Assembly: GCF_054482595.1 (NCBI RefSeq)
Contig: NZ_CM137008.1
Direction: 5' to 3' (one strand)
Length of the DNA stretch: 64,000 nt
Shown: one piece after another, positions 55,166-55,181 of the stretch
How the letters are laid out: each line of letters starts with the position of its first letter
How positions within the stretch are numbered: position 1 is the stretch's first letter
Translations under genes and position numbers: made by a program
The notes under the pieces: generated by a model
The model's input: the letters and a program-made list of their open reading frames with translations, nothing else
What the model was told of the DNA's origin: nothing
Database searches by the model: none

Positions 55166-55181
55166 TACAAGAATCATGCCA
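55166..55181 (-). promoter_or_regulatory. Candidate sigma-54 promoter for pspG
   Basis: Minus-strand TGGCATGATTCTTGTA (GG-N10-GT, psp-type -12 TTGT) ~35 nt upstream of the pspG start. Confidence 0.4.

Follow-up and report, generated by a model that had tools for sequence, protein, structure and literature searches.

The sigma-54-type element upstream of pspG corresponds to the known Psp-regulon promoter of Escherichia coli K-12

The dusA and pspG genes lie on the minus strand of the window, which is the whole 64,000-nucleotide stretch of E. coli DNA that was analysed, and they are separated by a spacer of 133 nt. The features of the locus are listed in Table 1. A 1-kb query around the site found a match in 5,425 of 5,426 complete E. 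coli genomes, and the genes beneath this match were annotated as dusA, pspG, and qorA. The gene order in K-12 MG1655 is dusA, pspG, the small RNA gene pspH, qorA, and dnaB, and therefore the window is the reverse complement of the K-12 map. The original prediction had placed a candidate promoter upstream of pspG, and the identity of the gene was borne out: the downstream 80-aa ORF belongs to PF09583 (PspG), exhibits 99–100% identity to E. coli PspG, and is annotated as "envelope stress response protein PspG" in more than 5,400 E. coli genomes and in K-12. A search for PspG homologues found 1,029, and PF09583 was present in 120 of 120 among the matches listed. Thus, a psp-effector gene lies directly downstream of the element, as in members of the PspF regulon.

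Table 1. Coordinates of the features at the dusA–pspG locus (positions in the window)
Feature	Position	Strand	Remarks
Upstream 347-aa ORF (dusA)	55264-56307	minus	
Distal TTCACCA repeat	55254..55260	minus	20 nt 5' of the proximal repeat, 3 nt past the dusA stop
Proximal PspF UAS-like block TAGTCAAATTCACCAC	55233..55248	minus	about -93 to -78; conserved non-coding
Proximal TTCACCA repeat	55240-55234	minus	inside the TAGTCAAATTCACCAC block
dusA intrinsic terminator	55205..55234	minus	10-bp G+C-rich stem, 6-nt loop, T tract; terminator scan
IHF-like core AATCAATAGATTA, matches WATCAANNNNTTR	55186..55198	minus	about -43 to -31; abuts the -24 element
Sigma-54 core promoter TTGGCATGATTCTTGTA (17-mer)	55166..55182	minus	-27 to -11 relative to the predicted +1
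Predicted transcription start (+1)	55155	minus	12 nt 3' of the -12 T; leader of 25 nt
pspG Shine-Dalgarno GGGAGAG	55135..55141	minus	sequence; conserved in the footprint
pspG CDS, 80 aa + stop	54888..55130	minus	ATG at 55130, end at 54888; ORF and translation, annotation
sRNA pspH (K-12 b4758)	54721..54831	minus	overlaps the pspG 3' UTR; 100% identity to K-12

The terminator scan placed the 3' end of pspH at a bidirectional terminator (54730-54752), which is common to the convergent qorA. Rfam gave no RNA family at the pspG locus and did not recover pspH there, though it is annotated in K-12. PspH has been described in K-12 as a sponge of the small RNA Spf, and according to the same paper it may derive either from the sigma-54 pspG transcript or from a promoter of its own. 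Elsewhere in the window, Rfam detected the sraL sRNA at 39866-40006 (+) and three copies of naRNA4 (nucleoid-associated noncoding RNA 4, CssrE) at 21840-22023 (-) and 32557-32628 (-). Upstream of dusA, a single 340-aa ORF at 56664-57686 (-), with short DATxDKLDN-like repeats near its N-terminus, occupies the place at which K-12 has two genes, yjbL (84 aa) and yjbM (235 aa, DUF2713). The K-12 genes yjbL and yjbM may be the split form of one gene.

In the sigma-54 consensus, YTGGCACGrNNNTTGCW, exactly 10 bases separate a GG from a GC doublet. On the minus strand of the window, TGGCATGATTCTTGTA reads at 55181..55166 in the context gattattttTGGCATGATTCTTGTAatgcc, with the -24 GG at 55180-55179 and the -12 GT at 55168-55167. 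The 10 bases between the doublets give the canonical sigma-54 spacing, and the prediction of a minus-strand element with this spacing at 55166-55181 was exact in its coordinates. The element is intergenic and in the sense orientation, and the T of its TGGCA lies 51 nt 5' of the pspG ATG. The -12 element is TTGT instead of TTGC, like that of K-12 pspA (TTGGCACGCAAATTGTA), and GT in place of GC at -12 is also found in the ChIP-seq table for pspA, ygeW, and dcuD. The description of this -12 element as psp-type was apt, since both pspA and pspG carry it.

By the rule of Bonocora et al. 2015, under which the start lies 19 bp 3' of the motif centre (55174), transcription of pspG is predicted to begin at 55155, and the distance to the ATG at 55130 equals the 25 bp that the same paper (PMC4591121) gives for the K-12 gene.

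The motif by itself is not beyond chance in 64 kb. TGGCAY-N5-TTGY matched the window once, at the pspG site, against 1.05 matches expected, and at least one match occurred in 68 of 100 shuffles. The GG-N10-GC scan was uninformative (703 matches versus 696 expected). Because the strict-consensus match lacked significance, the site was also evaluated with a leave-out PSSM and in orthologous loci. The PSSM had 17 columns and was built from 39 E. coli sigma-54 ChIP-seq motifs (PMC4591121, Table 1), with pspG, pspA, and fdhF left out. No position on either strand of the window outscored the pspG site, which reached 16.7 bits against a training median of 15.7, and a score at least as high was reached somewhere in 7 of 30 shuffled windows. 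The significance of the site therefore rests on its position and its conservation.

The same scan returned a second known sigma-54 promoter, GTGGCATAAAAGATGCA at 18837-18853 (+), an exact match to OS41 upstream of fdhF. It had the third-best PSSM score, and 41 nt separate its predicted start from the fdhF ATG at 18905, in agreement with the ChIP-seq paper; the SECIS element of fdhF was located at 19317-19371. Other matches, scoring 13.8–15.2 bits, were at 36123-36139 (-), which lacks the GG, 17150-17166 (-), 23809-23825 (-), and 46476-46492 (+). The matches at 36123, 17150, 23809, 46476, 19539, and 27540 are absent from the main text and Tables 1 and 2 of the K-12 ChIP-seq paper (PMC4591121) and were not taken as promoters. 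For 36123, 17150, 23809, and 46476, this absence suggests that the matches are probably due to chance.

Conservation was assessed by a genome scan with a PspG alignment as the query and one genome per species, of which the best 80 loci were kept. These represent Escherichia, Citrobacter, Salmonella, Enterobacter, Kosakonia, Klebsiella, Raoultella, Lelliottia, Kluyvera, Leclercia, and other genera. All are from Enterobacteriaceae, together with two records labelled as Chryseobacterium and as a Proteobacteria MAG that have enterobacterial-type sequence; Yersinia and Serratia lie outside the set. The motif TGG[CT]A-N6-TTG[CT] was found 48–85 nt 5' of the pspG ATG in 76 of the 80 loci, and no match to it occurred on either strand in the other 504 kb of these loci. 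In the remaining four loci, the corresponding place is taken by a variant with a single base changed (TTGTCAT..., ...TTGAT, TTGGCGC..., and ...TTGAA). The -12 doublet was GT in 75 of the 76 strict matches, indicating that the psp-type TTGT itself is conserved.

When the 80 unique upstream sequences were aligned with MAFFT, conservation was at least 95% for TGGCA, the next G, and CTTGTA, and for 13 of the 17 promoter positions overall. The region from -10 to +1 and most of the leader were less than 70% conserved, up to the Shine-Dalgarno GGGAGAG. The -24 and -12 bases are thus selectively conserved among orthologous pspG promoters. Since the 80 loci are orthologous and related, this conservation partly reflects shared ancestry; the presence of a conserved motif beside unconserved neighbours argues that ancestry would not be the whole explanation. 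One locus, from Citrobacter werkmanii NBRC 105721, has a GT instead of the GG doublet at -24 (TTGTCATGTTTCTTGTA). By the consensus rules this change should weaken sigma-54 binding; either a naturally occurring down-mutation of this pspG promoter or an error in sequencing may account for it.

Upstream of the core element, the IHF-like core is a sequence-level match, the footprint shows its TCAA and TTA to be conserved, and 35 of the 80 loci have a strict IHF core 17–18 nt 5' of TGGCA. The stem-loop of the dusA terminator (55234-55209) has a folding energy of -19.1 kcal/mol (z = -3.6), and across genera its stem is conserved and its loop variable. This terminator sits between the enhancer-like repeats on one side and the IHF core and promoter on the other. 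A TTYRCYA repeat is present 59–60 nt 5' of TGGCA in most loci. Of the 80 loci, 79 could be anchored on the promoter element, and 51 of these have both repeats, at 79/59 or 80/60 nt. Across genera, the distance between the repeats and TGGCA differs by no more than 1 nt, whereas the intervening sequence, especially the terminator loop, is free to vary.

Promoters of the PspF regulon are expected to have a UAS for PspF some 80–130 bp 5' of the start. The upstream repeats at pspG probably form the PspF enhancer. The proximal block resembles UAS II of pspA (TAGTGTAATTCGCTAAC), and an ungapped alignment of the pspG and pspA enhancers placed both repeats in register with 20 of 36 identical bases, a likeness that was equalled by 49 of 300 shuffles. 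Because this likeness is not significant, the assignment of PspF contacts rests on the conservation and the literature, and the exact bases of the proximal block are best regarded as putative contacts. The distal TTCACCA may be a second half-enhancer for PspF. The constant distance between the repeats and TGGCA despite the variable loop suggests that the terminator also serves as a fixed-length spacer. It is conceivable, though rather unlikely, that the pspG enhancer is bipartite like that of pspA and that the dusA hairpin is kept as a spacer of fixed length in the enhancer–promoter loop. If this bipartite reading were true, dusA termination and the PspF- and IHF-dependent looping would use the same DNA. 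A phasing constraint behind the fixed spacing is equally conceivable and equally unlikely.

The architecture was compared with that of the pspA promoter, which drives pspABCDE in E. coli. Both promoters have the same TTGGCA at -24 and the same unusual TTGTA at -12, and the ATCAA IHF-type block that lies 13 nt 5' of the TGGCA of pspA is present at pspG as well. The two AATTC(G/A)C repeats of pspA (UAS I and UAS II) are 20 nt apart, a spacing equal to that of the pspG repeats, and the two promoters have a common activator, PspF, and a common negative regulator, PspA. In contrast, the pspA enhancer lies about 17 nt farther from its promoter than that of pspG and overlaps the divergent pspF promoter, and at pspG a terminator hairpin fills the gap between enhancer and promoter.

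The comparison with the K-12 pspG promoter, which the original prediction had proposed as a check, revealed an identical 17-mer. In K-12 MG1655 pspG (yjbO), the ATG lies equally far from the element, and the UAS-like repeats, the IHF-like core, the stem of the terminator, and the Shine-Dalgarno sequence match those of the window. An alignment of 201 bases that runs from the 3' end of dusA through the spacer into pspG contained four differences from K-12, all of them among the 133 bases of the spacer. Three are in the terminator loop at 55222-55220, which reads AAT here and CCG in K-12 (CAAATT versus CACCGT), and one is at the predicted -5 position (55160), with T here and A in K-12. Identity of at least 99% over 55171-55271 was seen in only 43 of 5,420 E. 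coli records, indicating that this version of the stretch is rare. The orthologous Salmonella Typhimurium LT2 site of pspG (STM4244), TGGCATGATTTTTGTAAG, differs from the element described here by one spacer base (C to T); it is bound by sigma-54 holoenzyme, and PspF is named as its activator (PMC3844500). S. enterica subsp. arizonae and diarizonae have a longer leader, with 84–85 nt from the motif to the ATG.

The primary paper on the pspG (yjbO) promoter is reportedly that of Lloyd et al. 2004; that report aside, no experimentally mapped pspG start was found in the literature searched. In the ChIP-seq study of Bonocora et al. 2015 (PMC4591121), the peak OS40 (FAT 15) has the motif TTGGCATGATTCTTGTA, located 5' of b4050 pspG in the sense orientation, and this promoter is flagged there as "experimentally confirmed" in EcoCyc. 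In the same study, sigma-54 overexpression raised the expression of five genes that have an intergenic site upstream; pspG was one of them, and PspF was cited as its activator. A gSELEX peak of the RpoN holoenzyme was located in the dusA–pspG spacer by Shimada et al. 2021 (PMC8743547), and the orthologous Salmonella site was enriched 39-fold in the ChIP-chip experiments of Samuels et al. 2013 (PMC3844500). An 88-nt E. coli pspG probe formed heparin-resistant open complexes and gave abortive transcripts with sigma-54 and PspF(1-275); the study concerned noted the identity of the -24 and -12 elements in pspA and pspG and proposed that the sequence from -10 to -1 tunes the behaviour of sigma-54 promoters (PMC4641871). 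According to Mehta et al. 2013 (PMC3709507), PspF binds the UASs of both pspA and pspG, and its binding and the looping are assisted by IHF; pspG was assigned one UAS and a 20-fold induction, whereas pspA was assigned two UASs and a 100-fold induction.

The claim that pspG depends on PspF and sigma-54 in K-12 thus agrees with the published PspF-dependent up-regulation, UAS binding, holoenzyme binding, and open complexes. This functional evidence for occupancy and for PspF and rpoN dependence comes from K-12 or Salmonella, and identity to the K-12 sequence links it to the present strain. The element carries the sequence-level features of a sigma-54 promoter, and the holoenzyme occupancy, the rpoN and PspF dependence, and reportedly the start are documented for the identical K-12 sequence. 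These observations indicate, with a probability of about 0.97, that the element serves pspG, the second transcription unit of the Psp regulon of E. coli, as a promoter that depends on sigma-54 (RpoN) and is activated by PspF.

If the element were a chance motif, pspG transcripts would originate at a sigma-70 promoter or continue from dusA by read-through. Such a motif would be statistically ordinary, since the strict consensus is expected about once per 64 kb and shuffled windows can score equally high, and the -12 doublet has GT where the consensus has GC; these points speak against a sigma-54 element. No sigma-70-like promoter was predicted on the pspG strand of the spacer, however, and dusA is followed by the strong terminator, which together argue that pspG would be insulated from dusA and dependent on the sigma-54 element. 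Chance would also have to account for the presence of the motif in 76 of 80 orthologous loci and its absence from their flanks, as well as for the ChIP-seq, gSELEX, and in vitro transcription results obtained on the identical sequence, and is thus scarcely credible. The holoenzyme might instead occupy the pspG site without an active promoter, because binding does not prove a promoter and most of the 135 sites in the ChIP-seq study represent inactive holoenzyme (PMC4591121). This explanation appears just as remote: pspG is one of only five up-regulated genes with an intergenic site and has a known activator, its expression rises 20-fold under stress (PMC3709507), and the enhancer-like repeats and IHF core are conserved at a fixed spacing.

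A different question is whether the known promoter has been changed in strength or regulation in this strain by the T at -5 or by the rare CAAATT loop. Both differences from K-12 are real, the loop creates AAATTCGC, which is also present in UAS I of pspA, and a tuning role has been proposed for the -10 to -1 sequence (PMC4641871). Against this, Escherichia species differ freely in the loop (CATTGT, CTTTGT, CACCGT, and CATCGC), so that the loop allele looks neutral; conservation across genera is lacking from -10 to +1, and the hairpin energy is the same, -19.1 kcal/mol, for both loop alleles. An altered promoter is therefore improbable, if less remote than the two preceding explanations. For the same reasons, namely the free variation of the loop and the unchanged stem energy, the idea that the CAAATT loop creates an extra PspF site was rejected as the main reading.

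As the sigma-54-dependent promoter of pspG, the element would operate as follows. Sigma-54 RNA polymerase would bind the -24 GG and -12 GT (55182-55166) in a stable closed complex that would not open by itself, and the AAA+ enhancer-binding protein PspF would occupy the conserved upstream repeats at about -80 to -105. A bend introduced by IHF at the AATCAATAGATTA core beside the -24 element would allow PspF to meet sigma-54, and ATP hydrolysis by PspF would then open the promoter. In unstressed cells PspF would be kept inactive by PspA; upon inner-membrane stress, such as mislocalised secretins or loss of the proton-motive force, PspF would be freed and pspG up-regulated about 20-fold. The transcript would start near 55155 and carry a 25-nt leader before the pspG ATG. 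These steps follow general knowledge of sigma-54 and its bEBPs together with the papers cited above.

Overall, the pspG promoter is already known, and the element is the K-12 promoter itself in another E. coli strain. Since it is identical to the K-12 site already shown to bind sigma-54 polymerase, the original prediction was right and the finding is an ordinary one. Only mildly new, and descriptive, are the apparent enhancer with two repeats, as opposed to the published wording of one UAS, and the terminator of fixed length nested between enhancer and promoter. The pspG promoter is the textbook second promoter of the phage-shock regulon, so that the finding carries little weight beyond correct annotation and alters no open question. 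It does illustrate that a real sigma-54 promoter is recognisable from sequence alone. The phage-shock regulon helps enterobacteria to keep the inner membrane energised under secretin and other envelope stress, and the footprint of the whole control region of pspG, comprising the repeats, the embedded dusA terminator, the IHF core, and the -24 and -12 elements, could guide its mutagenesis.
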